Assembly (NCBI GenBank): GCA_965223435.1
Contig: CBDCWQ010000023.1
Coordinates: forward strand, 790,694-854,693
Length of the DNA stretch: 64,000 bases
Direction: 5' to 3'
DNA from: Myxococcota bacterium
GTDB taxonomy: Bacteria; Myxococcota; Kuafuiibacteriia; Kuafuiibacteriales; Kuafuiibacteriaceae
The stretch's first letter is position 1. Each line of letters begins with the position of its first letter. Below the pieces are notes generated by a model. That model saw nothing but the letters and a program-made list of their open reading frames with translations, did not search any database and was not told where the DNA came from. Below, piece by piece: positions 1 to 28,100 of this stretch. The position numbers and the translations under genes were made by a program.

Positions 1-2014
1 GCCGACCCAAGGCTTCTTCGAAACGATCGTCTCGCTGGGCTTCGTGGTAGGCCGCGAGGGCTCGTGCTGGCTCGAGGGTGTTCGGGGCTTTTCGTTGGGC
101 TGCGGTGGCCATCTTGAACGCAGAGCTCAGCAGCACCGCAGCTTCGCTTCTTTTGTCGGCGGCCAGGGCACGCAGGGCTTTGGGGTCGGGGTCGCTTGGT
201 CGCGGTTCGACTTGTCCCCTCCGCTTTTTTGCGCTCCAGGCTTTTAAGCGCCCGTCGATGCGTTTTGCGGATTGTTCCAAGCTGAGTGCCCATGCTTCCA
301 GCGCGTGTGCACGAATGACCCGCGCGTGGGCCCGATCGGCTTCTATCGCCGGATCTCCCGGCATCAACTGTTGAACTTGTTCCAGCAACAAGGATGCGTG
401 TTTCAGGCTGGGCAGGGTATCTGCATCGAGTGCGCGGCGAGACTCGAGTAGAAGCTTTTCGGCCCGGGCGTCGATGGGTCGCTTGGGGAGGATGGCGTAC
501 TTTTCGCCGAGGGCTCGCAACGCGTTGTCTCTCGGACCGTACATCGCAAATGCATAGGCTCCGGCGAGTCCGAGAACCGTGAGCGCACCAAGAGCCCAAC
601 CGATCTTGCCTCTGCGGTGCTGGCGTTTGAACTCGTCGACAACGCTGTCGGCGGCGCTCGGCCGTCTCTCGTGAGGGTATTCGAAGGAGAGGTCCCACGA
701 GGCGGATGCAGGCTGAATGGGTTGTTGCAGGGGACCCAAGTGTTCGATGGCGTCTTTCTGTCTTGGCTTGGCTTCGAGTGGGGGCACGATGGCCTTTTTG
801 ATGGTCGGGGCAAGCTGGGGTTGCTCCGGCAGCTGGGGCGGGATCTTGACGTCTGACCAAGCGTCGTCGTCATCTTCCTCTTGGCGGGTGGTTGCCCCTG
901 CGATTGAGTTCGGGCCGGTGGTCGAGGCTGCAGGGCTGCCTCTCCCCGTGCCCTTTACGCCAGGCGCGCCGCTCGGTGACAGGGACCCATCGGTGGACAG
1001 GACCTGCCCGGTGATGGGAACCGGTGCCAGCGGCTCCGCGGAGGTGAGCGGCGCCTGGACGGGATTCGATCGGGGTGACGACGCCAGATTCGGGTTGGGT
1101 TGGGCCTGTACCCCGTGCGGATTCGGTGGCGCCAGATTCGGATTCGGAGTGTGCGCCAGATTCGGGTTGGGTTGGGCCTGTACCCCGTGCGGATTCGGTG
1201 GCGCCAGATTCGGATTCGGAGTGTGCGCCAGATTCGGGTTGGGTTGGGCCTGTACCCCGTGCGGATTCGGTGGCGCCAGATTCGGGTGGGGCGCGGCTGC
1301 CAGGTTCGCGTTTGAGGGGGTCCGGGGCGCGTTCATTTGGCGCGGGGCGGGGGGCCCATTGGGGTTTGGCGGCGCCAGGTTGGGGTGGGGGTGAACCGGG
1401 GCGACGTTCGGTGAACGCACCGGAGAGGCCACCCGAGAAAGCGGGCCTTGGCTCGCGGGCGTAGCCCATGCCGCTCGCGCTGCGGAGGTGGTCAAGGGGG
1501 CGGCCAACGAGGCTGCAGCTTGGGCGGCCGCGGTCTGCGTCGGGGGCTCTGACGCAGGCGAGGGCGGCCCGGACTCAGGAACCAGGCTGGGATAGGGGGC
1601 CAAGCTTTGGCTGTCTTGGGCGCCAGGCTGGACCTGGGACGCGCGCTCTACGACGCTAAAAAACGGCTCGAGCTCACCGATATTGCCCAAACGTTTCCAG
1701 GTCTCGCCGTTCTTGCTGATCTCGTCATGCCGGGAAATACGCCCCTCCACGATCCATTTTTGGAGGGTGGTGAGCTCCCGGAACGCGATCATTTGACCAC
1801 CTGGTTTGCGGACGTACCACTCGCGGTCCTGGGGGCCAGCCCCGATGATCGTGGTGGCGCGCGCGGGCGGCGCCGGATTCGAACGAGGCTCGACCTGGAA
1901 CACATGGCCGCAAGCGGTGCACTTGACTGCGACCCCCGTCGGGCCAATACGGTTCTCCTCGAACTCGTACTCCGTGCCACATTTTTGGCAGCGAACATCC
2001 ATGAGGTTGGCCAT
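1..2014 (-). CDS. 5'-complete, 3'-partial (runs off window start) multidomain protein. N-terminal MJ0042-type zinc ribbon (CxxC…CxxC), then a GYF/DUF4339-like domain (REWYVRKPGGQMIAFRELTTLQKWIVEGRISRHDEISKNGETWKRLGNIGELEPFF). Next a Pro/Asn-rich region with 24-aa tandem repeats, one TM helix (GKIGWALGALTVLGLAGAYAFAMY), and a helical C-terminal region.
   Basis: Manual translation of the minus strand from ATG at 2014..2012 (immediately after the helicase stop, same frame) shows no stop down to position 1 (~671 codons). It begins MANLMDVRCQKCGTEYEFEENRIGPTGVAVKCTACGHVFQVEP. It is not in the supplied ORF track, presumably because no in-window stop exists. Confidence 0.6.
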   Translation of the reverse strand, partial: MANLMDVRCQKCGTEYEFEENRIGPTGVAVKCTACGHVFQVEPRSNPAPPARATTIIGAGPQDREWYVRKPGGQMIAFRELTTLQKWIVEGRISRHDEISKNGETWKRLGNIGELEPFFSVVERASQVQPGAQDSQSLAPYPSLVPESGPPSPASEPPTQTAAAQAAASLAAPLTTSAARAAWATPASQGPLSRVASPVRSPNVAPVHPHPNLAPPNPNGPPAPRQMNAPRTPSNANLAAAPHPNLAPPNPHGVQAQPNPNLAHTPNPNLAPPNPHGVQAQPNPNLAHTPNPNLAPPNPHGVQAQPNPNLASSPRSNPVQAPLTSAEPLAPVPITGQVLSTDGSLSPSGAPGVKGTGRGSPAASTTGPNSIAGATTRQEEDDDDAWSDVKIPPQLPEQPQLAPTIKKAIVPPLEAKPRQKDAIEHLGPLQQPIQPASASWDLSFEYPHERRPSAADSVVDEFKRQHRRGKIGWALGALTVLGLAGAYAFAMYGPRDNALRALGEKYAILPKRPIDARAEKLLLESRRALDADTLPSLKHASLLLEQVQQLMPGDPAIEADRAHARVIRAHALEAWALSLEQSAKRIDGRLKAWSAKKRRGQVEPRPSDPDPKALRALAADKRSEAAVLLSSAFKMATAAQRKAPNTLEPARALAAYHEAQRDDRFEEALGR
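1083..1298 (-). repeat. 72-bp tandem direct repeat, 3 copies, in-frame within the CDS above. It encodes 3 x 24 aa (PNPNLAHTPNPNLAPPNPHGVQAQ).
   Basis: The same string gccagattcgggttgggttgggcctgtaccccgtgcggattcggtgg recurs at 1083, 1155 and 1227 (period 72). Confidence 0.85.
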
Positions 2015-2020
2015 CCGAAG

Positions 2021-4465
2021 TTACCACGACTCGTCAACGGATCTCACGAACCGGGCAACCACCGTCTTGGACCCAAAATCGGGAAACTGGATGGTGAGGC
2101 GTGCGTTAGGGCCTACCCCGTCGACGCCCTGGACCAAACCCTCCCCAAAAGTGTTGTGTTGGATGCGAGCGCCGATTCTGTAGGGGTTTTCCGGCTCGAT
2201 CTCGTGGGTGTTACGGGAGGGGTTGGGCGGGGTGAGGGGGCGCCCATGTCGGGTGGGCTCGTCGTATTCGATTCGATCTTCGCCCCGAGAGACCGTGCGC
2301 CGGTGTGGGTTTTTGTGCCTGTGGCTCGGCGGGTTGTGGGGCGCCCCGAAACCCATCTTGGGGGCGGCCGGAAAGGGGCCCACGATCGCCTTCGGGAGGT
2401 CGCCAAGAAATCTTGACGGCTCCCGGTACTCTTCGCGGCCGTAGATTCGGCGATTTTTGGCGGCCGAGAGGTTCAGCTCGTGCATGGCCCGAGTGAATCC
2501 GACGTAACACAACCGCCTTTCTTCCTCCATCGACTCTTGGCCCCCTTCGACCGCTTGGCGGCTCGGAAAAGTCTGTTCTTCCATGCCGGCCATGAACACG
2601 GTCGGGAACTCCAGCCCTTTGGCGCTGTGCAAGGTCAACAGCGAAACCGAAGCGCCTTGACCCTCTTCGTCTACCGCGGATGCGAGCGCCGCTTCATCAA
2701 GAAAGGCCTGTAGGGGCGAACGCGCATCTTGGGCGGTGGCAAACGGCGCCGCTGATGTCGGATCGTCATCGGTCGTGTAGACGCTTTGCCGACTTTTGGG
2801 GTTCGCTTCGTGCTCGGCGATGGAGGAAATGAGTTCTGCGACGTTGGCCCCTCTGTCTTCCGCGGTGGCCGGCTCCGAAGTGACCAAATACTGCATGTAC
2901 TCCGTTTCTTGAATGATCGCATGCGCAACCTCTGTGGCGCTGCACTCTGTCGCATGGGCACGAAAGCGCTCCAAGGTGTGGCCCAGGGTTTGGAGTTTCC
3001 GGATTTGTGCCGTTTTGAGTCCGCCGTTTCTGAGAATATCTTCTGGGAGCGCGAGTGCGTGGGCCCCTAGGCATTGATGGGTTTGGCCAATGGCTCGGAG
3101 TTTTTCCAGGGTCCGTTCCCCGAGTCCTCGGCCCGGCGTGTTGGCGATGCGGTCAAAGTCAGCCTGGGACGAAGGGTTGGCGGTGATGCGCAGATAGGCC
3201 ACGATGTCTTTGACCTCTCGCCGCTCGTAAAATCCCATGCCGCCGATGAGCACATACTTGAGGCGGGCGCGTCGAAAAGCCTCTTCGAAGAGACGGGACT
3301 GGGCGTTTTGCCGATACAGAACCGCGAAGTCACTGGGGCTCTGGCCCGCCCGGATGCCTGCGTGAATTGCGTTTGCGATGAGATGGGCTTCTTCTTCGCT
3401 CCGATGACAGATATGAAGGCCGATGGGCTTTCCGGCAGCCTTTTGGGTTTTCAGTGCCTTTTTGTGACGCCCTTTATTTTTCGCAATCACCGCGTTGGCC
3501 GCCTGGAGGATGTGGCCCGTGCTTCGGTAATTTTCTTCGAGCTTGATCACCGAGGCTTCAGCATACTTCTCTTGAAAGCCGAGGATGTGGCGAACCTCTG
3601 CGCCGCGCCAGCGGTAGATGGCCTGATCGTCGTCCCCGACCACCCCGAGGTTGCGATCGGGTTCGACCAGCTGTTCGAGGAGTGCGTATTGGACTTGGTT
3701 GGTATCTTGGAACTCATCGACCAGGAAGTAGCGAAAGCGACGGGACCACGTTTCTTTGACTTCGGGGTATCTTTTGAGGAGCTCTACCGATTGAAGCAAC
3801 AGATCCCCAAAATCCATCGCGTTTGAGCGCTCGAGGAGCGATTGGTATTTGGGGTAGGCGGCTCGTGCGGCCCCTTTTGCCGGGCCCTCTTGGCCCGCGC
3901 TCGTTCGCAAAAAAGCGTCTACCGTGAGCCCTCGGTTTTTGGCGCGGTCTATTTCGTTGGCAATGGCCGAAAGAGAGCTTTGCTCTGGGTTTGCGTAGGT
4001 GCCGAGCTCTCGAAGAACTTTTTTGAGGAGCCGCTTGGAATCGTCGGCATCGTAGATGGTGAAACTTCGGTCGTAGCCCAAGTGATGCGCTTCTCTTCTC
4101 AAAAAGCGCGCCGCTAGGCTATGGAACGTCCCGATCCAAAGGTTTCCCAGGTCAGATCCGAGGAGGGCTTCGAGTCGTCGCCGCATTTCTTGGGCGGCCT
4201 TGTTGGTAAAGGTGACCGCAAAGATTTCCCAGGGCTGGGCGCGCTGGGTTTCAAGAATGTACGCAATGCGGTGCACCAGGACCCGTGTCTTTCCGCTGCC
4301 GGCTCCGGCCAGGATCAGAAGGGGCCCTTCGGTGGTTGTGGCGGCCCGGAACTGCTCGGGGTTCAATACGGTACGGAGAATCTTGCGACAGGCGGCGTCG
4401 CCGGGTGCCTCTTCCAACACCCGAGAGCCTACGGTTTCGCTTTCTTGGAGGCAACGCCGACTCAA
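2021..4465 (-). CDS. UvrD/PcrA/Rep-family ATP-dependent DNA helicase (814 aa).
   Basis: Walker A 'LLILAGAGSGKTRVLVHRIAYIL', 'TFTNKAAQEM', 'VDEFQDTNQVQY', 'YRST' and 'TLHSAKGLEFPTVF' motifs, typical of SF1 UvrD-like helicases. Confidence 0.9.
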   Translation of the reverse strand: MSRRCLQESETVGSRVLEEAPGDAACRKILRTVLNPEQFRAATTTEGPLLILAGAGSGKTRVLVHRIAYILETQRAQPWEIFAVTFTNKAAQEMRRRLEALLGSDLGNLWIGTFHSLAARFLRREAHHLGYDRSFTIYDADDSKRLLKKVLRELGTYANPEQSSLSAIANEIDRAKNRGLTVDAFLRTSAGQEGPAKGAARAAYPKYQSLLERSNAMDFGDLLLQSVELLKRYPEVKETWSRRFRYFLVDEFQDTNQVQYALLEQLVEPDRNLGVVGDDDQAIYRWRGAEVRHILGFQEKYAEASVIKLEENYRSTGHILQAANAVIAKNKGRHKKALKTQKAAGKPIGLHICHRSEEEAHLIANAIHAGIRAGQSPSDFAVLYRQNAQSRLFEEAFRRARLKYVLIGGMGFYERREVKDIVAYLRITANPSSQADFDRIANTPGRGLGERTLEKLRAIGQTHQCLGAHALALPEDILRNGGLKTAQIRKLQTLGHTLERFRAHATECSATEVAHAIIQETEYMQYLVTSEPATAEDRGANVAELISSIAEHEANPKSRQSVYTTDDDPTSAAPFATAQDARSPLQAFLDEAALASAVDEEGQGASVSLLTLHSAKGLEFPTVFMAGMEEQTFPSRQAVEGGQESMEEERRLCYVGFTRAMHELNLSAAKNRRIYGREEYREPSRFLGDLPKAIVGPFPAAPKMGFGAPHNPPSHRHKNPHRRTVSRGEDRIEYDEPTRHGRPLTPPNPSRNTHEIEPENPYRIGARIQHNTFGEGLVQGVDGVGPNARLTIQFPDFGSKTVVARFVRSVDESW

Positions 4466-6714
4466 AAGTTGATCGTTCCCTTGGTTTTGGATGGCGCACT
4501 CACGGGCACGAGCAGTTTCGGCAGCGATTCGCCGGCCAGCAGTCGGTAGATCATCAGAGTTTCAAAGACACGACGCACATACCGCCGTGTTTCGCGGTAG
4601 GGAATGCGTTCGACAAACTCGTCGAGGGGCCAGCCCCCAAAATCATTGAGCCACTGTCGGACGGCGGTCGGACCCGCGTTGTAGGCCGCGATGGCGGGTG
4701 CCCGCTGTCCCTCGTACTTGTCGAGTAGGCTGCCCAGGTACCACGTTCCCAGCCATACGTTCGCCTCCGGGCGTTTGTAGCGATAGGCATAACGTCGACC
4801 TCCAGTGGCCATGCGTCCGATGCTTTTTGCGGTTTTGGGCATCAGCTGCATCAGCCCGCGGGCCCCGGCCGGGCTCCGCACGTGCGGTCTGAAATGGCTT
4901 TCGGTCCGCATGATGGACCATACGAGGACGGGTTCTACCCCGTGGGATTTGCTCGCAGCCAGCACCGCTTTTTTGAACGCAAAGGGGTACGCGTGCCGAA
5001 ACGCCCGCCAGGCCGACGCGCGCCCCGAAACCAAATCTGCCCCCGAAGCGGCGACCGACAATGCCACGCGGAATGCTTGGTGATGTGCGCCCAGGTTGTG
5101 AAGGAGGTCCGCCACCCGGGTTCTTCCGGCGGGCGACTGCAACCGCCTGAAGAACCGGTCGGCTGCACGGAGGTCTTCGAGCGCTTCCTCTTTGAGGCCC
5201 ACGTCGTGAAGGGCGATGGCGCGATCCACGATGATCGGGCGTTTCGGGCCGAGCCCGGTGATGATTTGTTCGGTCTTGAGCGCTTTTTGGGGCGGGGGGG
5301 CCTTAAGGACCACTTTTTCTCCGAGGCTTTCGAGCCGAGCCGAAGCCCAAAAGCCGTAATAACTGAGCGGGCTCATTCTCAGGACTTCGCGGTATTCCCC
5401 TTTTGCGGCATCGATTTGGGCCTGCCTCTCTCGAAGTCGGCCGAGCCAGTAGCGGGCCTGAGGCCCGAGGGTGCTTTTGGGGTGGTCGACCAGAAGCTGG
5501 CCAAACGCGCGCCGAGCCATGCCCTCTTTTTTGGCGAGGTAGGCGGCCCATCCGGCGTACCACAGGGCGTCGGTTCTTTTCTTGCTTGTCGGGTACCGCT
5601 CTGCATAACCCAGCATCCGCCTCGATGCGGTCATGTATTGCCCCCGGTTGTAGGGAAGCCAGGCCGCGAAGTACTGGCCTTCTTCCGCGTGCTTCGACTC
5701 TGGAAACCGCCGTGCGGCCTCATGAAACCAGGCGGTGGCGCGGGTGTCGTCATCGCGGCTCATCGCCAGTTTGCCGAGGCGAAAAAGCACTTCATCGCCT
5801 CGCTTCTTGAGGGGGCGCTTGTGGAGTCGAAGAAGAATCTCTTCTTCTTTTTGTCGCCATCCACGCCGGCGGTACATTCTTGCATAAAGAAAGTCGATGG
5901 CCGTTTTGGCCTTGGGTGAGGTCTTCTTGAGTTTGTCCAGTCGTTTCGTGGCCCGGGTGTAGGCAGAAGAGCGGATCAGGTTCTTGATGCGTAAAAGCTC
6001 GAGTTTGGTGGTGGTGATCGGGACTTTGATGCCTTTTTTTTTCTTTTTTTGGACAAATCGCTCGAGTGCTTGGGATACGCGGGCGCCCGGGTGATTGAGT
6101 AGGGCTTTCCAAGCCACATGGGTCGCCTTTGTTTCGCGGCCGAGTCGGTCGAGGGTCGTTGCTTTTTGGAAGAGCAGATTGGGACGCCGAGCCACGTTTT
6201 TTTCTTTGAGAAGCGCTTCAGTGAGCTTCAGCTTGGCTTCCATGTCTCGGGTTCGGGTCAGAACGTTGATCAAGCTCCGGGCGGCCCGTCGGGCGATTTT
6301 TCGAGTCTGCGCGTGCTCGAGCGCATCTTTGTACGCGGTTTTCGCACGCTTGTGGTGGCCGAGTGCGAGCAGTGCGTCCCCGCGTAGCAGCGCGATGCGA
6401 TCTTCGAGCATCCGGGGTCGGGCGTTTTTGAGGGCTGCGAGTGCCTGGGTGGGGGCGCCCCGCCTCAGCGCCGTTTTGGCCTTGGCGTACGCCCGCTCGG
6501 CGCCGGTGAGGCGTGCTCGGTTGTGGGCACGTTTGGTGCGAACTTTCAGTCGGCCGCGCTCATCGAGCGGCAGTGAGGCGCCCGTGGTCAAAAGGAGTAG
6601 GGCAACGAGCAAGCTCCCGAGCGCCCACTTGGGGGGCTTCGGGTGTACCGGCCCGTGTCCCGGTTGCTGAGGGCCGTGCGCCTCCCGGTGATGATCCGAT
6701 GTCAGAGGGTTCAA
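4462..6714 (-). CDS. Soluble lytic murein transglycosylase (Slt family). N-terminal superhelical domain plus C-terminal SLT catalytic domain.
   Basis: C-terminal 'SIMRTESHFRPHVRSPAGARGLMQLMPKTA…AYNAGPTAV' is the ES…GLMQ…AYNAG goose-type lysozyme/SLT signature. N-terminal signal-like hydrophobic segment. 4-nt overlap with the helicase start. Confidence 0.85.
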   Translation of the reverse strand: MNPLTSDHHREAHGPQQPGHGPVHPKPPKWALGSLLVALLLLTTGASLPLDERGRLKVRTKRAHNRARLTGAERAYAKAKTALRRGAPTQALAALKNARPRMLEDRIALLRGDALLALGHHKRAKTAYKDALEHAQTRKIARRAARSLINVLTRTRDMEAKLKLTEALLKEKNVARRPNLLFQKATTLDRLGRETKATHVAWKALLNHPGARVSQALERFVQKKKKKGIKVPITTTKLELLRIKNLIRSSAYTRATKRLDKLKKTSPKAKTAIDFLYARMYRRRGWRQKEEEILLRLHKRPLKKRGDEVLFRLGKLAMSRDDDTRATAWFHEAARRFPESKHAEEGQYFAAWLPYNRGQYMTASRRMLGYAERYPTSKKRTDALWYAGWAAYLAKKEGMARRAFGQLLVDHPKSTLGPQARYWLGRLRERQAQIDAAKGEYREVLRMSPLSYYGFWASARLESLGEKVVLKAPPPQKALKTEQIITGLGPKRPIIVDRAIALHDVGLKEEALEDLRAADRFFRRLQSPAGRTRVADLLHNLGAHHQAFRVALSVAASGADLVSGRASAWRAFRHAYPFAFKKAVLAASKSHGVEPVLVWSIMRTESHFRPHVRSPAGARGLMQLMPKTAKSIGRMATGGRRYAYRYKRPEANVWLGTWYLGSLLDKYEGQRAPAIAAYNAGPTAVRQWLNDFGGWPLDEFVERIPYRETRRYVRRVFETLMIYRLLAGESLPKLLVPVSAPSKTKGTINF
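6034..6050. repeat. Homopolymeric T9-C-T7 tract (A-tract on the coding strand) inside the Slt CDS. It encodes a KKKKKK run.
   Basis: gcc ttttttttt c ttttttt gg at 6034-6050. Unusual in a ~63% GC genome. Confidence 0.8.
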
Positions 6715-7373
6715 AGGTTGATGATGCCCTGCCGGATACCTTCCGTGACAGCCTCGACGCGGTTGGAGACATCGAGTTTTTCGTAGATGTGTTCCAAGTG
6801 GGTGCGAATAGTGGCCTTGGAAAGGCCCAGGACTTTGGCCGCTTCGTGATTGGAGAGCCCTTTGGCGATGATCTGCAGGATCTCCAGCTCTCGTTCGGTC
6901 AGGGGCGATGCGTCTTTGGCCGCCTGCAGCGAAGACGGCCCCATGCCGGTCCGGGTCTCGATGAGCCGGAGGAGCGCACGGGCCAAGTTGGGCTGAATCA
7001 CCGCCCCGCCCGCGTGCACGTCCTTGATTGCTTCCACGATTTTTTCGACGGGGGTGCCCTTCAGAAGGTACCCCGCTGCGCCGGCGGCGATGGCGTCGAT
7101 GACCTTCTCTTCTTCGTCGAAGATGGTGAAGATCAGAATCTCTATCTTGGGATGGGCTTGGCGCACCCGCCGGGTCACCTCGATGCCGCTCATGTCGGGG
7201 AGGCCGAGGTCCAGCAACATCACGTCTGGCTGGAGTACCTCGAGCTGCGCCAGCGCGCTCTCTCCGGTCAGGGCTTCGCCCACGATATGTAGCTCTGGGA
7301 ACGTCTCCAGCAGCTTGATTTGCGCTTTGAGGATTTTAGGCTGATCCTCGACCACCAGTAGACGAATGCCCAT
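6711..7373 (-). CDS. NarL/FixJ (LuxR-type) two-component response regulator: REC domain plus C-terminal LuxR HTH.
   Basis: 'RLLVVEDQPKI…VMLLDLGLPDMSG' receiver motif and C-terminal 'LTERELEILQIIAKGLSNHEAAKVLGLSKATIRTHLEHIYEKL' LuxR HTH. Start chosen at MGIR (ATG 7373) with an AAAGG SD. The track ORF extends to 7442. 4-nt overlap with the Slt start. Confidence 0.85.
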   Translation of the reverse strand: MGIRLLVVEDQPKILKAQIKLLETFPELHIVGEALTGESALAQLEVLQPDVMLLDLGLPDMSGIEVTRRVRQAHPKIEILIFTIFDEEEKVIDAIAAGAAGYLLKGTPVEKIVEAIKDVHAGGAVIQPNLARALLRLIETRTGMGPSSLQAAKDASPLTERELEILQIIAKGLSNHEAAKVLGLSKATIRTHLEHIYEKLDVSNRVEAVTEGIRQGIINL

Positions 7374-7585
7374 GTAAACCTTTGCCGCTCCACTTACCGA
7401 AGCCGTTGAGCCAGGCACAACACCAAATTTCAGAGGGTGCATCTCACATTCAGCGCTTTGGGCGCAAGCGACGCTCTACGGATGTCGCGAATGCGTGGCA
7501 AAACACGCTGTTTTTGCTGGTACTTAGCGTGGATTTTGGGGCCTGACGCAATCCGCTTGCCTAGGGCCCCCGCCGTCCGCGAGGC

Positions 7586-8530
7586 TTGTCTTTGTCGATG
7601 CCAAAGAAGGCAACCATCGTGTCCCGCCGGCCTTTGACGGGCGAGACGAAAAACGAGGCCCTGGTTTTGGGTCGCAAACGGTCAGACCGCGTTCTTCGGA
7701 GGGCATTGGACGGGTTTGTGGCGAAGGCCGATAAAGAGGCCTGCGTCGAGCGGGATCCCTTGGCGCTTGTGCGTCGCTATCGCGACCCTCACGATCAGGA
7801 AGTCGCGGGCTTTTTCGTGGCGATGCTCGCCTACGGGCGGGCGCAAAGCATTCAGGACAAGGCGGGTGCGTTGCTCGACTTGCTCGGGACGCGTCCGGCG
7901 CGCACCCTCGGGCGCGGCCAGGCCGAGCGTTTGCTCTCGGGGTTTGTGTACCGCTTTCAACAGGGACGGGATCTGCCGCGCTTGGCGGAGGCGGTTCGGC
8001 GTCTGCGAAAAAAGAGGGGCAGTCTAGGGGCCGCCTTTTTGCGGGGCGCCAGGCCCGAAGAACCTCACTATGTCCCCGCGATGGGGCGTTTCGTGAAGGC
8101 GCTTGAAGGCGAACTGGAAGGCGCGCTCACCTACGGCCTTCGGTTCTTGCTGCCCCAGGTCGACCGTGGGGGTGCGGCCAAGCGTTTGGCCCTCTACCTG
8201 CGTTGGATGATTCGACCCGACGATGGCGTCGACCTGGGTACGTGGCGGCGGTTGGCTCCGGGGGTTGATGCGCAAAAGCTGGTGATTCCCCTCGACACCC
8301 ATGTGGAGCGCATCGGTCGCTACCTGGGTCTGACCGATCGGCGTTCCTCGGGCATGAAGACGGCCCTGGAGATCACCGCGGCCCTCCGGCGTTTGGCCCC
8401 CGAAGACCCGTTGGTCTACGATTTGGTGCTTTGCCACCTCGGTATCAGTGGGGCGTGTCCTCGGCAAAAAGACCCCGTCCTTTGTCGAGGTTGTCCCATC
8501 AAGCAGGTGTGCCGCCTGGGGTCTTCTTGA
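7586..8530 (+). CDS. TIGR02757/DUF2400-family conserved hypothetical protein (HhH-GPD-like fold family) with a C-terminal Cys cluster.
   Basis: Motifs 'DPLALVRRYRDPHDQEVAGFFVAMLAYGR', 'PLDTHVERIGRYLGL', C-terminal 'CHLGISGACPRQKDPVLCRGCPIKQVC'. Family assignment from memory, not verified. Confidence 0.5.
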   Translation: MSLSMPKKATIVSRRPLTGETKNEALVLGRKRSDRVLRRALDGFVAKADKEACVERDPLALVRRYRDPHDQEVAGFFVAMLAYGRAQSIQDKAGALLDLLGTRPARTLGRGQAERLLSGFVYRFQQGRDLPRLAEAVRRLRKKRGSLGAAFLRGARPEEPHYVPAMGRFVKALEGELEGALTYGLRFLLPQVDRGGAAKRLALYLRWMIRPDDGVDLGTWRRLAPGVDAQKLVIPLDTHVERIGRYLGLTDRRSSGMKTALEITAALRRLAPEDPLVYDLVLCHLGISGACPRQKDPVLCRGCPIKQVCRLGSS

Positions 8531-8803: not shown

Positions 8804-10789
8804 ATGCAAGTTTCTTTACCCGACGGTTCCGTGCGTGAGGTCCCAGATGGGGCCAGTTTCCTTGATTTGGCTCAAGACATTGGGCCTGGCTTGGCGAAGG
8901 CCGTGGTTGCGGCCAAACTCGACGGGGAGCTGATGGATATCCAGGCGACCATTCCGCGCGAAGGGCGGGTGGAGCTTTTGAAGCTCGATGCGCCCGAGGC
9001 TCAGGATATCATTCGCCACACCTGCGAGCACGTCATGGCGACGGCGGTCTGCCGGCTCTATGAGGGCGCCCAGGTGACCATGGGGCCGAAGGACCACGGC
9101 AAAGACTTCTACTACGATTTCGACATCGGTCGGCCGTTTACCCCCGAGGATCTCGAGAAGATCGCGGCCGAGATGAAAAAGATCATTGCTGCGGACGAGC
9201 CTTTCATCCGGCGGGTGGTCCCCAAGCGCGATGCCCTGGAGATTTTTGCGGCGCTGGGGCAGCGCTTCAAGCCTGAGATTCTAGACTGGATCCCCGGTGA
9301 CTCGGTCACCCTGTATCGCGATGCCGATTTTGTGGACCTTTGCCGCGGTCCACATCTTCCCACTGCCGGGCGGATTGGGGCTTTTTCGCTGACGGGGGTT
9401 GCTGGTTCCTACTGGCGCGGTGATCGGACTCGGGATGCCTTACAGCGCATCCGCGGTGTGGCCTTTAAGAGCAAAAAAGACCTTCAGGCTTACGAAAAAA
9501 AACAGGCTCTGGCCAAGGAACGAGACCACCGCAAATTGGGCTCGGAGCTCTCTCTTTTTGGTTTCTCCCCGCTCGCACCCGCTTCGCCTTTTTTTCTGCC
9601 CAAAGGCGCGATTGTCTATAACCAAATGGTGGCCTACATCCGCGCGATTTATCGGCGCTACGGTTACCAAGAGGTTGTGACCCCGCAGATTTACAACACA
9701 GACCTGTACCGAACGTCCGGGCACTACGACAACTACCGCGACAACATGTATTTCGCGGAGTCTGGCAAGACCGAGGGCGGTGACTCCGGCGAAACCGAAG
9801 AGGCTTCCGGCGTAGAATGGTCGGTGAAACCCATGAACTGCCCCGGCCACTGCGTTCTTTATGGGATGAAGCACCACAGTTTTCGCGACCTCCCCTGGCG
9901 GGTGGCTGACTTCGGTCGGCTTCATCGTTCCGAAGGGGAGGCGGTTCATGGACTGATGCGGGTACGAACCTTCGCCCAAGATGACGCCCACATTTTTTGC
10001 ACCCGCGAACAAATGCTCGGGGAGACCAAAGCCTTTATTGACCTCGTGGGGGAGGTCTATCGAGATTTTGGCCTTTCGAAGTTCTCGGTTGTGTTGGCCA
10101 CGCGGCCAGAGAAACGAATCGGTGAGGATGCGCTTTGGGATGAAGCCGAGGCGGCCCTCAAGACTGCGCTTGTCGACAAAGACCGGCCGTTTGACCTGGC
10201 GCCGGGCGAAGGGGCATTTTACGGTCCGAAAATTGAGTTTCATGTCCAAGACGCGCTTGACCGTGATTGGCAGCTCGGGACCATCCAGGTCGACTTTTCG
10301 ATGCCTGGGCCTGGCGCCTTTAACCTCGGTTACGTGGGGGCTGATGGTCAGCGCCATACCCCGGTGATGCTTCATCGAGCGATTTTGGGCAGCCTTGAGC
10401 GTTTTTTTGGTGTTTACCTGGAGCACACGGGCGGGGCTTTTCCGACCTGGTTGGCTCCGGTGCAAGCTGCGATTTTGCCGGTCACCGATCGGGCCATGGC
10501 CCACGCGGACCAGATTCAGGCGGTCCTGGCGCGTGCGGGAATCCGCGCCGATGTCGACCGCAGAAACGAAAAACTTGGACGCAAAGTCGCGGAATCACGA
10601 GTGATGAAGGTTCCTTATATGCTCATCGTGGGCGATCGCGAGGTCGAAAACGGGGGCGCATCGGTTCGGGTTCGCGGGGGGAAGGATCTGGGCCCCATGA
10701 CCACCGATGCCTTGAAAGCATTCTTGGCCCAAGAATCGAGGATGCCGGGGGCCGCGGAGCTTTCGGCTCCCGGGAGCACTGGGCTTTGA
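8804..10789 (+). CDS. thrS: Threonyl-tRNA synthetase.
   Basis: N-terminal TGS domain (MQVSLPDGSVREV…), second additional domain (HTCEHVMATAV), class II core (FRDLPWRVADFGRLHRSE…, GAFYGPKIEF), C-terminal anticodon-binding domain. Followed by infC-rpmI-rplT as in the canonical operon. Confidence 0.95.
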   Translation: MQVSLPDGSVREVPDGASFLDLAQDIGPGLAKAVVAAKLDGELMDIQATIPREGRVELLKLDAPEAQDIIRHTCEHVMATAVCRLYEGAQVTMGPKDHGKDFYYDFDIGRPFTPEDLEKIAAEMKKIIAADEPFIRRVVPKRDALEIFAALGQRFKPEILDWIPGDSVTLYRDADFVDLCRGPHLPTAGRIGAFSLTGVAGSYWRGDRTRDALQRIRGVAFKSKKDLQAYEKKQALAKERDHRKLGSELSLFGFSPLAPASPFFLPKGAIVYNQMVAYIRAIYRRYGYQEVVTPQIYNTDLYRTSGHYDNYRDNMYFAESGKTEGGDSGETEEASGVEWSVKPMNCPGHCVLYGMKHHSFRDLPWRVADFGRLHRSEGEAVHGLMRVRTFAQDDAHIFCTREQMLGETKAFIDLVGEVYRDFGLSKFSVVLATRPEKRIGEDALWDEAEAALKTALVDKDRPFDLAPGEGAFYGPKIEFHVQDALDRDWQLGTIQVDFSMPGPGAFNLGYVGADGQRHTPVMLHRAILGSLERFFGVYLEHTGGAFPTWLAPVQAAILPVTDRAMAHADQIQAVLARAGIRADVDRRNEKLGRKVAESRVMKVPYMLIVGDREVENGGASVRVRGGKDLGPMTTDALKAFLAQESRMPGAAELSAPGSTGL

Positions 10790-10863
10790 GGTAGCCACGA
10801 GACGCCCCGAGAGGTAGACGGCTTGAGGGTCGTTCCCAGTGGGCACTGACGGGAGGAGTAGCC

Positions 10864-11652
10864 ATTCCACGAGCAAAGCATAGTCGCCGCGACGACAAAA
10901 CGCGCGAGCCACGGGTCGATCGAAGAATCCGCGTGCCTGAAGTCCTGGTCATTGACTCTGACGGGACAAAACTGGGGGTGATCTCTACGCAAGACGCCCT
11001 CCGCCGAGCCCGGGACCAGGGCCTCAATTTGGTTGAGGTGGCCCCGAACAGCCGGCCTCCGGTGTGCCGTATTCTCGACTACGGGAAGTACAAGTACGAC
11101 GAAAAGCAGGCCCAAAAGCGCAAGAAGCGCAACCAGGTTGTGGTTGAAGTCAAGGAAGTGAAGTTTCGGCCCAAGATCGAAAAGCACGATTTTGAGTTTA
11201 AACTGCGCCACGTGGGACGGTTTCTCTCGGACGGGAACAAGGTGAAGTGCACCGTCATGTTTCGGGGTCGCGAGATGGCCCATACGAACCTTGGCGAGCT
11301 CATGCTGGAGCGGGTGCTTGGTGAGCTTGAAGGCAAAGTCAACGTTGAGCAGTCCGCCAAGCTTGAAGGGCGCAACATGACCATGCTGATCGCGCCAAAG
11401 GTGGGTGCTTGGCCGAAGAAAGAAAAAGAGCAGCCTGAGGCGGCTCGATCCAAAGATGGCAAGCGGGGCAGCCAGCGCCCGCAAAAGACCGAAGCAGCGG
11501 ACGGCGAAGTGCGCGCCGAGGGCGGCGAAGAGGCACCCGAAAGCCAAGCGCCGGCCGTTGCCGGCGGCGAAGTCGCGGGGACTGGGGCTGCCGCGCTCAG
11601 CGCCGACGCCGGCTCGGAAACCCCGAAAGAACCCGCCGCTGAGGCCTCCTGA
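10864..11652 (+). CDS. infC: Translation initiation factor IF-3 with an Ala/Glu/Lys-rich C-terminal extension. Proposed non-canonical ATT start at 10864; the first canonical in-frame start is GTG at 10933.
   Basis: 'RRIRVPEVLVIDSDGTKLGVISTQDALRRARDQGLNLVEVAPNSRPPVCRILDYGKYKYD…FRGREMAHTNLG…LEGRNMTMLIAPK' matches the IF-3 N and C domains. The frame is open upstream to a TAG at 10792. A strong SD GGGAGGAG (10851-10858) lies 5 nt before ATT 10864. Confidence 0.8.
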   Translation: MPRAKHSRRDDKTREPRVDRRIRVPEVLVIDSDGTKLGVISTQDALRRARDQGLNLVEVAPNSRPPVCRILDYGKYKYDEKQAQKRKKRNQVVVEVKEVKFRPKIEKHDFEFKLRHVGRFLSDGNKVKCTVMFRGREMAHTNLGELMLERVLGELEGKVNVEQSAKLEGRNMTMLIAPKVGAWPKKEKEQPEAARSKDGKRGSQRPQKTEAADGEVRAEGGEEAPESQAPAVAGGEVAGTGAAALSADAGSETPKEPAAEAS

Positions 11653-11986
11653 AGGACGGGGGCCCGCCCCGCCGTGAATTGGGCCCATGGCCATTGTGTC
11701 TCGGCTCACTGGAATGCATGCAAACGAACCCGTTTGGCGGGTGTGCGTCGAGGTCGAGAGGTGGGCCGAATTTTAGATTCGGCCTAGGCGCCCTGAGGTC
11801 GCCCCCTGTTGCTGGGGCTCGGCTATCCGTGAGGCACGGCGCAACGGATCCGTGCGTTCAAATAAGGGGTTTTCTGGTTTCGTGCGCAGGCGGGTCAAAA
11901 TCGATTGGCGGTCGAGCCCTGGAGGTGATAGCAGAGCGTTTCTGCTGCGGGTTGGACCGGAGCGACTTCGAGGGAGCCCGTCAGGA
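11653..11986 (+). promoter_or_regulatory. 334-nt structured spacer between infC and rpmI. Candidate L20 (rplT) autoregulatory leader/attenuator.
   Basis: Unusually long gap inside an otherwise tight operon. A GC hairpin (acgggggcccgccccg) sits right after the infC stop. In other bacteria L20 represses rpmI-rplT via a leader structure. Confidence 0.3.
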
Positions 11987-12603: not shown

Positions 12604-12863
12604 CGGGCAACGCGACGTCCGCCGCCCGTGAACCGCGGCAGCCCCAGCCCCATGGGTGCCTCGATGCCCTTCGGACCGGCCCCTCTCTGAACCGCCGCCA
12701 AACCCGATACGTCTGTTCAAAGATGCGCGCGATGTCTTTGTCGTCATTTTGACCGAGCCGGCCTGGGGGCCGGTTGGCGGGTCTCTGACCGCCGTGGTAG
12801 CTCCTTTGCCAGCGATGGTGCGGTCCTGGCGAAGGGCGGCCCATCGACGAGGGAGGAACGTTG

Positions 12864-13763
12864 ATGCGACGGGGAACGACGCGAAGCGCGGGTGTATGCT
12901 CGCACCGGAACCATGCAAACTGGCTTTCCCTTGGTGCGTTTTGCGCACTGGTGGCGTGCACCGAAAGGCCAACGGGCGATGCCCACACCCAAGTTGCGGG
13001 CACCGGTATGCTCCGCATCGGGCTGGCCTCGGCGCCGGACGAAGCCTTTGATGTGGTCCAGGTTCGCTTTGTCGTCACCTCGAGCGCGACCGGTCAATCT
13101 CAGGAAGCCACGGTTTTTCTCGAGGAAGAGGGGCTTCCAGAGGCGCTGGATGCGGCGCGCGCTGGGGTCCGGTTCGCCGATTGGTTTGTGGTCCTGAACG
13201 CCGGAGACTATCTCGTACAAGCGATGCCGCTCACCCAAACGGGCGCGCCGTCGGTGAGTTGTTCGACGGCGATGGGAAGTGCTTCGGTGCTTTCGGGGGC
13301 CACGACCGAAATCGTGTTGGAGTCCGCATGCGGAGGTGTCCGTTCTGGAGCTCTGGACGTGGTTTTCGTGCTGCAGCCCACGCCGTTTATCGAGGAGCTT
13401 TTTGTCGAGGACAGTAAATTTATCTGTGAGGACGAAGCGCTTTTGGCCACCCTTGCGTTGGGCGCCTCCGTGGACGGTTCGGACTGCACGTGGACCGTGA
13501 GTGGCACGCCAGACAACGTAGGCGAGGAAAGCTACTGTTTGGTCTCGAACGGAGGACAGGCAAGCTTTTCGGCGAACGCGCCAGGGCGCTATGAACTCAC
13601 GGTGAGCGTGGCGACCAGCAGCATTTCGACGGCGCTCCGTTTTCCGGTGTACGTGTCTTCGTGCGGTCTTGGGTCTTCCTGTCCGGGGGACCCCGCGTTG
13701 TCGGACATCCCATCGCCCCCAGGACTTTCGTCGGGACAATGCGTGTGTTCGGGCGACGAGTGA
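12864..13763 (+). CDS. Secreted lipoprotein of unknown function (Cys-rich, probably Ig-like beta fold).
   Basis: Signal peptide with lipobox LVAC (…LSLGAFCALVACTERP). SD GGGAGG at 12851. ATG 12864 (the track ORF starts TTG 12861). Confidence 0.55.
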   Translation: MRRGTTRSAGVCSHRNHANWLSLGAFCALVACTERPTGDAHTQVAGTGMLRIGLASAPDEAFDVVQVRFVVTSSATGQSQEATVFLEEEGLPEALDAARAGVRFADWFVVLNAGDYLVQAMPLTQTGAPSVSCSTAMGSASVLSGATTEIVLESACGGVRSGALDVVFVLQPTPFIEELFVEDSKFICEDEALLATLALGASVDGSDCTWTVSGTPDNVGEESYCLVSNGGQASFSANAPGRYELTVSVATSSISTALRFPVYVSSCGLGSSCPGDPALSDIPSPPGLSSGQCVCSGDE

Positions 13764-13787
13764 CGGTTTCAAAAAGGGAGCACAGTG

Positions 13788-15029
13788 ATGGAACGAACAA
13801 AAGCATCCAAACAGTCTTTCATCCGTCGTGGGGCCACCTTGATCGACCTCGCGGGCGGCATGGGCCGAGGTCGAAACGTCTCGGTCGCGGTCTTCGCTCT
13901 GATCTTGAGTCTGGGTCCTAAGGGGGTAGAGGCGGCGGGAGATGCGCCTCCGATCCCTGAAGCGTACCGGGTGACCATCCAGAATCTGACTGGAGGTCAG
14001 CCCTTTAGCCCGCCCTTGGTTGCGGTCCACAACCATCGGATCGACTTTTTTAGCGTGGGCGCGGTGGCATCCCGCGGACTTCAGGCCATCGCCGAAAACG
14101 GCAACAACGCGTTGATGAGCGGTCGATTCATGATGCAGCCCGACCGTATGGTCTCTCGGGTCGCGGAGGCTGCGGCGCCGTTGGTTCCTGGATCCAATCC
14201 CGGCGGGACCATGTTTGAGAATCACGTGACCCTCGACCTGGCCACCCTCAAGGGAACGCGTTTTTTGTCGATGGCCACGATGCTGATCTGCACCAATGAC
14301 GGTTTTACCGGGCTCGACAGTGTGCGGCTTCCACGCAAGGGATCGCGGACCATGGTCACTCGGGCGTACGACGCGGGAAGTGAACAAAACACCGAGGACT
14401 TCATCGACATGGTGCCGCCGTGTCAGGGACTCATCGGTGTGAGCTCCCAAGATCCCGGCACCGGCGAAAGCAACCCGGCGCTGTCAGAAAACGGAAGCAT
14501 TGGACCCCATCCTGGAATTGGGGGTGGCGCCGATCTTCTTCCGGACGTCCACGGGTGGCAGAACCCGGTGGCTCGGGTCACCATCACGCGGGTGTCGCCC
14601 ACGGGCCAACGCTTTGGGGCGCCCCTGAGCGGTCGAAGTGAAGTGGTGGAAGCCGACGACGGCCAGGTAGGGATGGTGGACAGCGCGGCCACCGGTCTGG
14701 CGATTTTTCGTTTACAAAACGGCGAAACCGAGCTTGCCTATCGGCTCACGGTCAGCCGACTCGAAGGCGTCACCCAGGCGCATATCCACATCGGAATGCC
14801 TCACGAGAACGCACCGGTCGTTGTATTCTTGTTCGGCCCGGTGGCACCGAGCACCGGGCAAGGCTCGATCGCGGAGGGCGTGCTCACCGCCGATGACCTC
14901 GTGGGGACCGTTGCGGGTGACTTTGCGGCTTTGGTCTTGGCGATGAGGGAGGGCCGGGCCTACGTCAATGTCCATACCGAAGCCCACCCGCGCGGCGAAA
15001 TTCGTGGTCAGGTGGGGGTGGTCTGGTAG
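13788..15029 (+). CDS. Secreted spondin_N-domain + CHRD-domain protein.
   Basis: N-terminal 'YRVTIQNLTGGQPFSPPLVAVHNHRIDFF…TMLICTNDGFTGLD' resembles the spondin N-terminal domain. C-terminal 'GVTQAHIHIGMPHENAPVVVFLFGP…AYVNVHTEAHPRGEIRGQV' resembles the CHRD domain. SD AAAAGGGAG. Alternative start at ATG 13860 would give a cleaner signal peptide (MGRGRNVSVAVFALILSLG). Confidence 0.7.
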   Translation: MERTKASKQSFIRRGATLIDLAGGMGRGRNVSVAVFALILSLGPKGVEAAGDAPPIPEAYRVTIQNLTGGQPFSPPLVAVHNHRIDFFSVGAVASRGLQAIAENGNNALMSGRFMMQPDRMVSRVAEAAAPLVPGSNPGGTMFENHVTLDLATLKGTRFLSMATMLICTNDGFTGLDSVRLPRKGSRTMVTRAYDAGSEQNTEDFIDMVPPCQGLIGVSSQDPGTGESNPALSENGSIGPHPGIGGGADLLPDVHGWQNPVARVTITRVSPTGQRFGAPLSGRSEVVEADDGQVGMVDSAATGLAIFRLQNGETELAYRLTVSRLEGVTQAHIHIGMPHENAPVVVFLFGPVAPSTGQGSIAEGVLTADDLVGTVAGDFAALVLAMREGRAYVNVHTEAHPRGEIRGQVGVVW

Positions 15030-16351: not shown

Positions 16352-19300
16352 TCAATCCCCATCGGGGGCCGATGTCGGGTTGGGTTCATCGAGGAGCCAG
16401 TAGTTCCATTCTTCCACGGATTGGTTGGGGGTGAAATACATCCGGCCGTTCGGGTATGTTGCATCTTCTTTCCAAAACCGGAGGATCTGGACCGTGTCTG
16501 GACCGTTCAGGGTGGCGATGTAGAGGGCTCGTTCGTCGTCGTCTTGGAGGGTGCGGTGCATGAATGCGTTGATGGGGTTGAAAGTGTTGATCGCGGCGGC
16601 TTGGGGTTCAAAGCCGAGGGCGGCTCGGTGCTGTGGATTGAGCGCCGTCTCTTGGGGATTGAGGGGTGTTTGTCCAGCTTGAGGCATCCGAAGATGTTCT
16701 TTCCATTGGTCTTCCAAAAAGCGAAGATACGATTCGAGGGTGACCGTCGGTTTGGGGCCTGGGGCCAGTTCGAAGGGGCTTAGGTCCTTCAGCACATCTT
16801 TGAGGAGCACGCGGTCCACCTGCCAGTCCGAACTCATGAATATCTGGATGGCCTCGGCCTCGAACTCGAACGTGTTCCCGTCGGCTTTGGCGATGGCAGG
16901 CACAAACGCAAGAAAAAGAGCGGTCCCGAAGAGCGCGGCGCCGGTCTGACCCGACATGACGCGGAAAGCCTCCTCTGGGTCCTTTTTCTTGATGGCCAAT
17001 AGATCAATGCTTCGGTACGGAAGGAAAACGTCGTCGATGACTTTGGCGACGCCAAACGCATCGTCAAACTGTGTTTGCATGGCGTCGATCACGCGCGCAG
17101 CGCTCGTCTTTTCGATGGGGACCCGGCACACGCGGCACGCGGGGACGAAGTAGGTTTGACCAAGCGTCATGGAGAGCAAGGCGTTTTCGAGGCGCACGAA
17201 GGGCTGTGAGGGTTGATAGAGTCGTTTGGTTTCGAACAATGCGCCCGCCGAAGGGTCTGGGATCACGTCGATGATGGCAAAAGGCCCGGGAAATTTCGCT
17301 TCGTGGATTTCGGGGTCCAAGGTGTTTGGGTTCTCCTCCGGCGGGCCCCAGCGTGGGCGAATGTTGGGCCCGAACAGACCTTCAGCGAATGCGGAAAAAC
17401 CGATGAGTACCGGGCCTCCTTTGCCGGTTTCTGGGTTGACCGTGTGGAGGGGAACCCAGAGTCCTGCCTTTTCCTTGGCCGGGGACAGCTCCTCTTTGTG
17501 CAGAGCGTACAGTTTTTCGATGATGGCTGCGGTGCTGCGCTCAGGATACGGCGTAAGGGCTTGATCGACAACCGGGTGAATGTTCATGAGGTCGTGTCGC
17601 GCCTCGTAAAAATTCGTTTGTACCGCCTGCACCATATCCTTGTTGGTTCCTAAGAAGACGGACGCGAGTCCAGCAAAGTTCCGGAGGATAAAAGTTTGGG
17701 CACGATTTTTTGGACTGGTAAGCCGTTTATGCTCTTTGAGGCTGGTCGGAATCGCTGTCGAATAGACATACATGCCCGAGACGCGCAAAAGCGCGGCCAG
17801 GGTCATGAGCTGCGTGCTTTTTCCGTAGCCGTCTCCAAGTTGGGGTTCTTTGGGGGGAACGACACCGATCGGTTGTAACGGAAGCTCTGGCGAGGGATGA
17901 GCCGAGGCGTCCGGAAGCTTGGATGCCTCTTGCTTAAGCGTATCGGTGGACTCGGTTGGGTTTGAAGGGGGGGGCGAATCCTCCACGCCTGGGGCGTTTG
18001 CCATGTAGGTCACGGGGGGCGTGCGGAAGTGGGCGTAGCGTTCCGCTTCTTTTTGAGAGAACTCCCCGCGAATGGTGAGTTCAATCCAAAAGAGGATCTG
18101 TGCTTTCATGGCGTCCGGAAGAAAAGAAAGACTCTCTTCGGCTTTCTTCATACGAAGATGGTTCTTGACAAACGCAGCCAGGATGTCGCTTTGCGGGTGC
18201 GCACTTTTGAGCGCGTGGACTTCAAAGAGGGCGCCGTCCTCGAAGGTCAAGATCCCCAAGGACCCAAAGGGTGTTTGGTCTACGCCCATCCAATCGATGG
18301 TGACGTGGTAGATTCGGTCATCGTTCATGAGGATCGATGGCCCCAACAGTGGATCGCGTCCGAGATCGGTCGAGGTGTACACCGGAACCGTCGTGCGCAA
18401 CACGTCTTCGTCCTTGAGGTAGGTTCCAAACGGCGCGAGCAAGTCTTCCCCGCGCACCAAGCCAACCGGCTCCCATGCGTGCGGGCTGGGGGGCGCGCTC
18501 CCCACAAATACACCCAAAAGGCCGGGGTCGACCTCGAGCCCGAGGCTTGCGGCGTAGCTGAGTACGCTCGGGGCCACGGCCGTGACTGCAGCGAGTTCGG
18601 GCGGGAGAGCCAAAAGGTCGTCGAAGTGCCGGGCGAGTTCTTTCAGCACGAGCGTCCGCGACTTGGTCGCGATCACCCCTGGGGGCCCAAGGCCCGCCAA
18701 CTCGGTGGTGCCCAGCTTTTCGCTGTGTTTGGAAGAACTGCGGTCCTCGTCGTTGCTCGGCATGTTGTCCTCAGGGGTGAAGACGAACGACGACTTGGTG
18801 GTGTCTTTCTCGTCGGGAGGCAGGCGGGCTGCGTTTGCGAGGCGGTCGAAATCCGACTCGGTGATTCTTCCGGTTCGCATCATGAGGTGGACGCGAAGCG
18901 GCGTGAGACCGGCCGTTTCGGCCAAGTCGGGTAAATTGCCGCTGTGGTAGCGGTTGATGAAGCGACGCAGTTGCCGAACATTTTCTTGGAAGAAGGCGTA
19001 ATCCGCCTCGTCCGAAATAATGAACGCGCCCCCTGGTATCCATGTCGGCTGGGCATAGAGGAGTTGGTCCAGCGCGACTTGGGGAGAGATTGCCCCCGTA
19101 TGGAACCGGGGCGTCTTTTCGTGTTTTTCGATGGCTCTGAGCTCGATGGCCGTTCGATGCCAATAGTTGGGAGACGCAGAATTTTTGAGTGCAATCAGGT
19201 CAATTTCTGGTGTGAAGTAGTAGGGCGGTGTGACCGTGGTGACGGTTTTTTCAGCCGCCTGGGTCCATAGTCGGCGAAGTTTGTTCGACAGGGTGCCCCC

Positions 19301-27870: not shown

Positions 27871-27872
27871 GT

Positions 27873-28100
27873 TTATCCTTTGGGGTCTGTGCGTTGAAAA
27901 CCGAGTGCTTCGAAGAGGGTACAAACGTACTCTACCAAGACCTTGGTCCAGCCGTGGTAGGGCACCTCGGCGATTTGCGAAGCGAGTTGTCGTCTGAAGA
28001 TCGTCCGACGAACGCGCTCTACAAAACGTGCCTCGGGGAGATCCTCGAGGGCTTTGAGATCGAGGGGGCGGTCCGTCCCGTTGTCCAAGTCGTCCGTCAT
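27873..28100 (-). CDS. Small 75-aa protein encoded directly downstream of the ECF sigma factor. Candidate anti-sigma/regulatory partner.
   Basis: Start overlaps the sigma-gene stop (TGATG). No recognisable motif; assignment is by genomic context only. Confidence 0.3.
   Translation of the reverse strand: MTDDLDNGTDRPLDLKALEDLPEARFVERVRRTIFRRQLASQIAEVPYHGWTKVLVEYVCTLFEALGFQRTDPKG

Follow-up and report, generated by a model that had tools for sequence, protein, structure and literature searches.

A ZnR-GYF membrane protein with helical repeats encoded at the edge of a Myxococcota contig stretch

In GltJ (AgmX) of Myxococcus xanthus, the GYF domain binds a proline-rich sequence of AglZ and the zinc ribbon (ZnR) binds MglB; the 95-residue linker between the two domains binds MglA-GTP in competition with the ZnR, and the freed ZnR recruits MglB (Attia et al. 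2024, PMC11135422). The GltJ ZnR resembles that of ZitP, which binds the polar organiser PopZ, a protein given in the same paper as absent from Myxococcus (PMC11135422). ZnR-GYF modules with a membrane module placed after them are described there as widespread, and have been proposed to act in transmembrane signalling with other ligands (Attia et al. 2024, PMC11135422). Here we describe a minus-strand gene at the edge of a 64,000-nucleotide stretch of DNA from a Myxococcota bacterium of the Kuafuiibacteriaceae (assembly GCA_965223435.1, contig CBDCWQ010000023.1, forward-strand positions 790,694 to 854,693; hereafter the window). Its product belongs to the class of ZnR-GYF membrane proteins, with a ZnR (residues 1-42), a disordered stretch (residues 43-57), a GYF-like domain (residues 60-125), a transmembrane (TM) helix (residues 467-489) and helical repeats.

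As in the members described by Attia et al. 2024 (PMC11135422), the ZnR is placed N-terminally to the GYF domain, an arrangement given there for myxobacteria and planctomycetes, and a flexible linker and then a membrane-associated module are present. The canonical Gly, Tyr and Phe residues are absent, which according to the same source is the case in nearly all bacterial GYF domains (PMC11135422). The main text of that paper characterises GltJ alone and does not name the family described here, which bears tetratricopeptide repeats (TPRs).

A protein-coding gene cut by the window edge

Direct translation of the minus strand over 1..2014 gives 671 codons without a stop, running past the window edge. 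On its 5' side the frame is closed three codons ahead of the ATG at 2014, by the stop codon of the upstream helicase gene (TAA, 2021-2023). By a rough estimate (about 65% GC, with about 2.5% of random codons being stops), the chance of 671 stop-free codons is about 3e-8. The open reading frame (ORF) track contains no entry for this minus-strand frame, because the lister omits ORFs that run off an end; a first-pass annotation, made from the letters, had supposed as much when it proposed a clean frame of at least 671 codons, and the lister itself states that edge-running ORFs are unlisted. The same annotation had suggested a BLASTP-type search of the translation. In a search of 5.8 billion proteins we found a 957-residue protein (P0001, whose residue numbers are used throughout), 100% identical to the window frame and without a name in NCBI and ENA, and beyond it 161 homologues at E <= 0.001, the nearest at E about 1e-80. 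The protein is thus already public, unnamed or under the generic name 'zinc-ribbon domain-containing protein'. A lack of homologues with conserved domain order, which had been named in advance as the observation that would count against the frame, was not seen; hundreds of homologues share the domain order. The window covers residues 1-667 of P0001 (1..2002, minus strand), or the 5' 70% of the coding sequence.

P0001 begins with MDVRC, encoded from the ATG at 2002, and each of the 50 aligned homologues begins with MDV(R/K/S)C; the true start is therefore probably ATG 2002 rather than ATG 2014. The latter, from which the first-pass annotation had started, is in frame and would prepend MANL, and no homologue uses it. 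The frame of that annotation stands, with its start moved four codons inwards.

The GC content at the three codon positions (0.69/0.54/0.71) is compatible with coding DNA, but the in-phase antisense frame shows its mirror image, so that it cannot tell the two apart; the choice between gene and antisense ORF is therefore settled by homology. The ORF listed at 1607..2416 on the plus strand has its codons in register with those of the minus-strand gene (positions 1607 and 2012 both leave a remainder of 2 on division by 3), an antisense-in-phase relation already recognised when it was first called spurious. Since it straddles the junction of two homology-supported minus-strand genes and has no Pfam match, it is, judged by these comparisons, a shadow ORF and not a gene. 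Homology identifies the minus-strand frame 1..2002 as a genuine protein-coding gene cut by the window edge.

In a pattern-guided scan that took one genome for each GTDB species, 322 loci were found to encode relatives, of which 80 were retained. Nearly all of the 80 are labelled Myxococcota, Myxococcales or 'Deltaproteobacteria' metagenome-assembled genomes (MAGs), and Anaeromyxobacter terrae is also among them. The sole non-Myxococcota labels belong to L018 (JAWOLE010000220.1) and L030 (JBDRCO010000087.1), MAGs labelled Thermoanaerobaculia and Pseudomonadota; L018 is on a 5-kb contig and may be mis-binned. A phmmer search with residues 1-126 against 1.84 billion representatives returned 1195 proteins at E <= 1e-10, 135 of them at E <= 1e-30. 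Among the best 150 of the 1195 matches, the alignment falls at the N-terminus or no more than about 100 residues from it, and the proteins are mostly 400-950 residues long, the shorter ones probably being fragments. Judged from these matches, the family is Myxococcota-wide. In the literature, we found no paper on any orthologue and no functional study.

Domain architecture and comparison with GltJ

From the sequence, the first-pass annotation had proposed an N-terminal MJ0042-like CxxC...CxxC zinc ribbon, a GYF/DUF4339-like domain, a triplicated 72-bp in-frame repeat at 1083-1298, one TM helix and a helical, perhaps TPR-like C-terminal region. The profile scans, repeat mapping and fold models bear out each of these, the GYF-like domain through a domain-only scan and fold comparison even though the whole-protein Pfam scan gave no GYF match, and the repeat as the same array in a slightly different phase. 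All coordinates in this section are on the minus strand.

The ZnR (residues 1-42; 1877..2002) is located at the extreme N-terminus, with Cys5 and Cys8 forming a first CxxC motif and Cys28 and Cys31, after about 19 intervening residues, a second one. It matches PF13717 (Zn_ribbon_4) with an E-value of 2.2e-13 and 50.3 bits against a cutoff of 30.3, and NCBIfam TIGR02098 (MJ0042_CXXC) with 36.8 bits against a cutoff of 20.9; these profile matches place the protein in the MJ0042 zinc-ribbon family. The four cysteines are invariant in 50 sequences, and in the AlphaFold model (predicted local distance difference test score, pLDDT, about 89) the domain has four strands. By sequence, the closest solved relative is the M. 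xanthus GltJ ZnR ('Adventurous gliding motility protein X', E 2e-6); 2NB9, which we take to be the ZnR structure of ZitP from Caulobacter crescentus, ranks second (E 3.8e-4). ZitP likewise carries an N-terminal MJ0042-type ribbon on a bitopic membrane protein, but, unlike the window protein, has no GYF domain and no TPRs. The ZnR is followed by a flexible linker (residues 43-59; 1826..1876), with pLDDT values below 50 over residues 43-57, in which the motif PP(R)ATT.IG.GPQ is semi-conserved within the closest clade of the alignment.

The GYF-like domain comprises residues 60-125 (1628..1825). When these residues were scanned in isolation, the sole Pfam match was GYF_2 (PF14237), covering profile positions 1-50 of 50 with an E-value of 0.009 and 16.2 bits, below the cutoff of 25.8. 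GYF_2 was also the sole recurring match in 21 of 26 homologue domains, with a best E-value of 0.0016. A profile of the domain searched against the Protein Data Bank (PDB) gave no GYF match, just noise at E above 0.5. The AlphaFold model, calculated from the 50-sequence alignment, has a pLDDT of 88.3 and a beta-beta-alpha-beta-(beta)-alpha topology. When it was compared to the PDB with Foldseek, the top 13 matches comprised ten named GYF domains (from Smy2, GIGYF1/2, Arabidopsis GYF and GltJ, 7Z3C) and three chains of TOC-TIC/TIC complexes, with probabilities of 0.94-1.0 and TM-scores of 0.51-0.62; solved GYF domains, with their beta-beta-alpha-beta-beta fold, are thus the closest structures. 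The domain is GYF-like by its modelled fold and sub-threshold by sequence. Compared to the eukaryotic GYF domains of CD2BP2, Smy2 and GIGYF1/2, to which its identity is 14-21%, and to Pfam GYF_2, whose threshold it does not reach, it has an extra C-terminal helix. Within the family, no other part is as conserved: 15 of its residues are invariant in 50 sequences that are otherwise about 30-45% identical. The invariant residues include Trp62, Trp83, Trp102, Phe114 and Phe115, and a further aromatic residue, Phe74, is kept in at least 90% of the 50 aligned sequences.

Residues 126-453 (644..1627) form a disordered tether of about 330 residues, predicted to be cytoplasmic and rich in Pro, Ala, Ser and Asn (21% Pro and 16% Ala), with pLDDT values mostly below 50; the stretch PNPNLAPPNPHG is a peptide from this tether. 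Both its length and its sequence are hypervariable among the aligned homologues, and the spacing of 341 residues between the GYF-like domain and the TM helix is the longest among 67 family genes (range 25-341, median 125). The tether contains three in-frame 24-residue units, P(N/H)PNLAPPNPHGVQAQPNPNLA(HT/SS), at 1076..1291; unit 1 deviates at one residue (His for Asn) and unit 3 at the last two. With the program TRF, a period of 72, 2.8 copies, 100% matches and a score of 408 were obtained at 1082..1285, DNA identity being perfect there. A degenerate 8-residue periodicity is nested in the array, and older degenerate copies are located upstream of it. The 24-residue unit is present in none of the homologues in the 50-sequence alignment, while in-frame tandem repeats as such occur in 49 of 74 family genes, with 112 of 114 TRF rows having a period divisible by three. 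The P0001 cluster has a single member; an exact scan of metagenome contigs with a 38-nt piece of the repeat gave 0 matches, and a protein-guided metagenome scan yielded one distant locus only. The tether would be a length-variable spacer evolving by in-frame tandem duplication, and the 72-bp repeat appears to be a recent slippage or duplication event in this length-tolerant region, lineage-specific and not a defining or functional hallmark of the family.

The single TM helix, IGWALGALTVLGLAGAYAFAMYG (residues 467-489; 536..604), is the sole strongly hydrophobic segment, containing the highest 19-residue Kyte-Doolittle window (1.64), and is preceded by the basic sequence KRQHRRGK. A basic juxtamembrane motif (D.V..F.R..RR) is conserved ahead of it in the alignment consensus, and in the AlphaFold model residues 454-488 form an unbroken helix. 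Beyond the membrane segment, stacked helices form the first part of a TPR-like superhelix (residues 494-667; 2..523), predicted to be periplasmic and modelled with pLDDT values of 95-98. According to the model, the superhelix extends past the window to residue 767 and is followed by a disordered linker (residues 768-835) and three TPRs (residues 836-955). Pfam TPR matches (TPR_2, TPR_16, TPR_8, TPR_19 and others) were obtained at residues 835-937 of P0001, all outside the window; the helical region inside the window has no Pfam TPR match and is TPR-like by fold only. A Foldseek comparison of the full-length model with the PDB returned only generic TPR superhelices, which give no functional clue. 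The C-terminal TPRs are conserved across the family, and shorter members are without most of the periplasmic region. Because of the positive-inside rule, the zinc-binding domain and the like topology of GltJ, we predict that the N-terminus is cytoplasmic and the TPR part periplasmic.

With GltJ (NF033761; PDB entries 7Z0K for the ZnR and 7Z3C for the GYF domain) the protein thus shares the N-terminal MJ0042 ribbon with cysteines at positions 5, 8, 28 and 31, which in GltJ are the reported zinc ligands (PMC11135422). Also in common are a flexible linker leading to a GYF-type domain, an extended cytoplasmic region, one TM helix, an N-in/C-out topology (predicted here) and an origin in the Myxococcota. 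The two proteins differ in the linker between ZnR and GYF domain, which is 95 residues long in GltJ and about 17-20 here, and in the periplasmic part, which consists of an unstructured segment and a TonB-CTD-like domain in GltJ but of a TPR superhelix and three TPRs here. Unlike GltJ, the window protein has the Pro-rich tether of about 330 residues between the GYF-like domain and the TM helix, and its gene lies outside any glt gene cluster.

Gene neighbourhood and other features of the window

Four co-directional genes follow one another on the minus strand, and the ZnR-GYF gene closes the series. The apparent operon is headed by a LuxR-type response regulator (6711..7442), followed by a lytic transglycosylase with an SLT domain and TPRs (4462..6714; Pfam and NCBIfam scans) and a UvrD/PcrA-type helicase (2021..4465; PF00580, E 1e-85). 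Successive genes overlap by 4 nt at 6711-6714 and 4462-4465, and an 18-nt gap separates the helicase stop from the ATG at 2002. The minus strand over 1..8000 showed no terminator-like site, and a promoter and terminator scan gave nothing exceeding the shuffled background. The gene is probably co-transcribed with the three genes upstream of it. A response regulator, an SLT-TPR protein and a UvrD/PcrA helicase are an odd functional mix for one transcription unit.

The four-gene order, together with a divergent DUF2400 gene upstream, is kept in seven related loci from MAGs. A uvrD gene is located upstream on the same strand in 18 of the 80 related loci, directly adjoining in the ten closest; about 31 other loci, from Myxococcaceae, have a divergent ftsK in the upstream position. 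In M. xanthus or Anaeromyxobacter, ftsK and gatCAB flank the orthologue. The downstream context was taken from the loci of relatives, 25-40 of which have gatC, gatA and gatB downstream; gatCAB would likewise be expected next to the window gene. In 36 loci, a gene for a small protein of about 100 residues, which combines a charged N-terminal helix with a Zn_ribbon_TFIIB domain (PF13453, E 2.6e-13), is located a median of 16 bp 3' of the family gene and ahead of gatC/A/B (for example L053, about 3014..3313, plus strand); it is absent in the closest relatives of the window, where gatC comes directly next. A tandem paralogue directly precedes the family gene in 12 loci (for example L035, 5005..6738, plus strand). 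It combines an MJ0042 ZnR, about 300 residues of Pro/Ala/Gly/Met/Gln-rich repeats (AAGMPPQ-like), a candidate GYF-like segment recognised by eye, a TM helix and TPRs; its long linker between the ZnR and the candidate GYF-like segment is as in GltJ.

Elsewhere in the window, three giant minus-strand ORFs (16352..26878, 3508 residues; 31259..43585, 4108 residues; 43858..57444, 4528 residues) probably encode very large surface or secreted proteins. For the first, Pfam gives no match at all at E <= 0.001; the second has Glucodextran_B-like Ig domains alone, near residues 413-481, and the third additionally matches BNR, Laminin_G_3 and, weakly, Peptidase_S8. Between the first two are genes for a double GT2 glycosyltransferase (28477..31239, plus strand) and an MscS-like channel (27025..27924, minus strand). 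On the minus strand, a gene for an MbnP-like protein (59099..59941) adjoins one for a di-haem cytochrome c peroxidase/MauG-like protein (57911..59062), resembling the copper-related MbnP/MbnH pair. Two further minus-strand ORFs, 10615..11709 (364 residues) and 12744..14450 (568 residues), have no Pfam match; the latter overlaps a CHRD/Spondin_N gene (13785..15029, plus strand) and may be a shadow ORF.

Proposed role of the family

We consider it rather likely that the gene product is a bitopic inner-membrane adaptor of a Myxococcota-wide family. In this proposal, the ZnR-GYF module would act as in GltJ, with the invariant aromatic residues of the GYF-like domain binding a proline-rich stretch within one cytoplasmic partner, while the ZnR would bind a second partner. 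The flexible tether and the single TM helix would join this module to the periplasmic TPR scaffold, which would hold periplasmic or envelope proteins and thereby link them physically to the cytoplasmic complex. Several points weigh against it. The topology on which it depends is a prediction, and the role assigned to the family draws on sequence, models and analogy. The linker of about 17-20 residues compares with 95 in GltJ, where it contains the site for MglA-GTP in competition with the ZnR, so the autoinhibitory switch of GltJ may not apply here. Finally, the neighbours (uvrD or ftsK upstream, gatCAB downstream) are housekeeping genes swapped between clades and therefore identify no partner.

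The protein could instead be an envelope or division scaffold, chiefly a periplasmic TPR platform on which Tol-Pal-like or peptidoglycan-remodelling proteins would assemble, with the ZnR-GYF part as a mere cytoplasmic anchor or localisation signal. The tight co-directional packing with the TPR-bearing SLT transglycosylase, in an order kept in seven relatives, would fit this, as would the adjoining divergent ftsK of about 31 other loci and the family-wide conservation of the C-terminal TPRs. However, the linkage to the SLT gene is restricted to one clade, and the upstream neighbour is uvrD or ftsK depending on the clade, as expected for a housekeeping neighbourhood. Moreover, conservation is strongest in the cytoplasmic GYF-like domain, whereas the periplasmic region is mostly missing from shorter members, making such a scaffold an unlikely explanation. 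A GltJ (AgmX) orthologue, taking part in the Agl-Glt gliding focal adhesion and binding AglZ, MglA-GTP and MglB, would share the order of ZnR, GYF domain, TM helix and periplasmic part; the GltJ ZnR is the closest solved ZnR relative, the GltJ GYF domain is among the top fold matches and NF033761 (gliding_GltJ) is listed among the NCBIfam matches. That match reaches 23.7 bits where the equivalog cutoff is 450, and is aligned over residues 7-51 only, essentially the ZnR. Orthology was also dismissed on the periplasmic domain, the linker length and the gene context, which contains neither glt nor agl genes (it comprises uvrD and the SLT gene, in relatives gatCAB or ftsK), and we regard it as very improbable.

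Of equally slight probability is a membrane-anchored, anti-sigma-like signalling receptor, in which the zinc domain would sequester a transcription factor and the periplasmic TPRs would sense a signal. The outline is alike, with a zinc-binding N-terminus, one TM helix and periplasmic repeats, and the apparent operon begins with the gene for a LuxR-type response regulator. The zinc motif is of the wrong type, an MJ0042 ribbon (CxxC...CxxC) and not ZAS/HxxxCxxC, and no extracytoplasmic function (ECF) sigma gene adjoins it in the window or in the related loci; we therefore rejected this explanation. Known MJ0042 ribbons, those of GltJ and ZitP, are moreover reported to bind polarity proteins (PMC11135422). 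As to a non-functional frame, GC-rich DNA does yield long spurious ORFs, several of which overlap here, and codon-position GC cannot separate the frame from its in-phase antisense. The hundreds of homologues with a shared domain order, the residues invariant across the phylum and the domains modelled with high confidence, set against overlapping ORFs without family matches, leave a chance ORF or pseudogene remnant with a negligible probability, and homology rules it out.

A bolder version of the adaptor proposal, which we put forward as speculation and think improbable, is that the ZnR-GYF family constitutes a second transmembrane switch across the Myxococcota, independent of Glt. Its GYF-like domain would be autoinhibited by the protein's own Pro-rich tether acting as a cis-ligand, here with freshly triplicated PNLAPPNPHG motifs. 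Repeat copy number would tune the coupling of a cytoplasmic polarity partner (MglB-, RomR- or AglZ-like) to periplasmic cell-wall remodelling, the latter being suggested by the SLT lytic transglycosylase encoded alongside.

A real gene of 957 codons for amino acids was absent from the ORF track for crossing an edge, while a spurious antisense ORF stayed in. To date, GltJ is the sole protein in which the ZnR-GYF module has been dissected; it acts there as a switch controlling bacterial focal adhesion assembly. The family described here carries a GltJ-type module on a different periplasmic scaffold and is present across the phylum; it leaves the general picture unchanged and should be of interest to myxobacterial cell biologists. 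Because the GYF-like domain is very strongly conserved across the phylum, an important partner probably awaits discovery.

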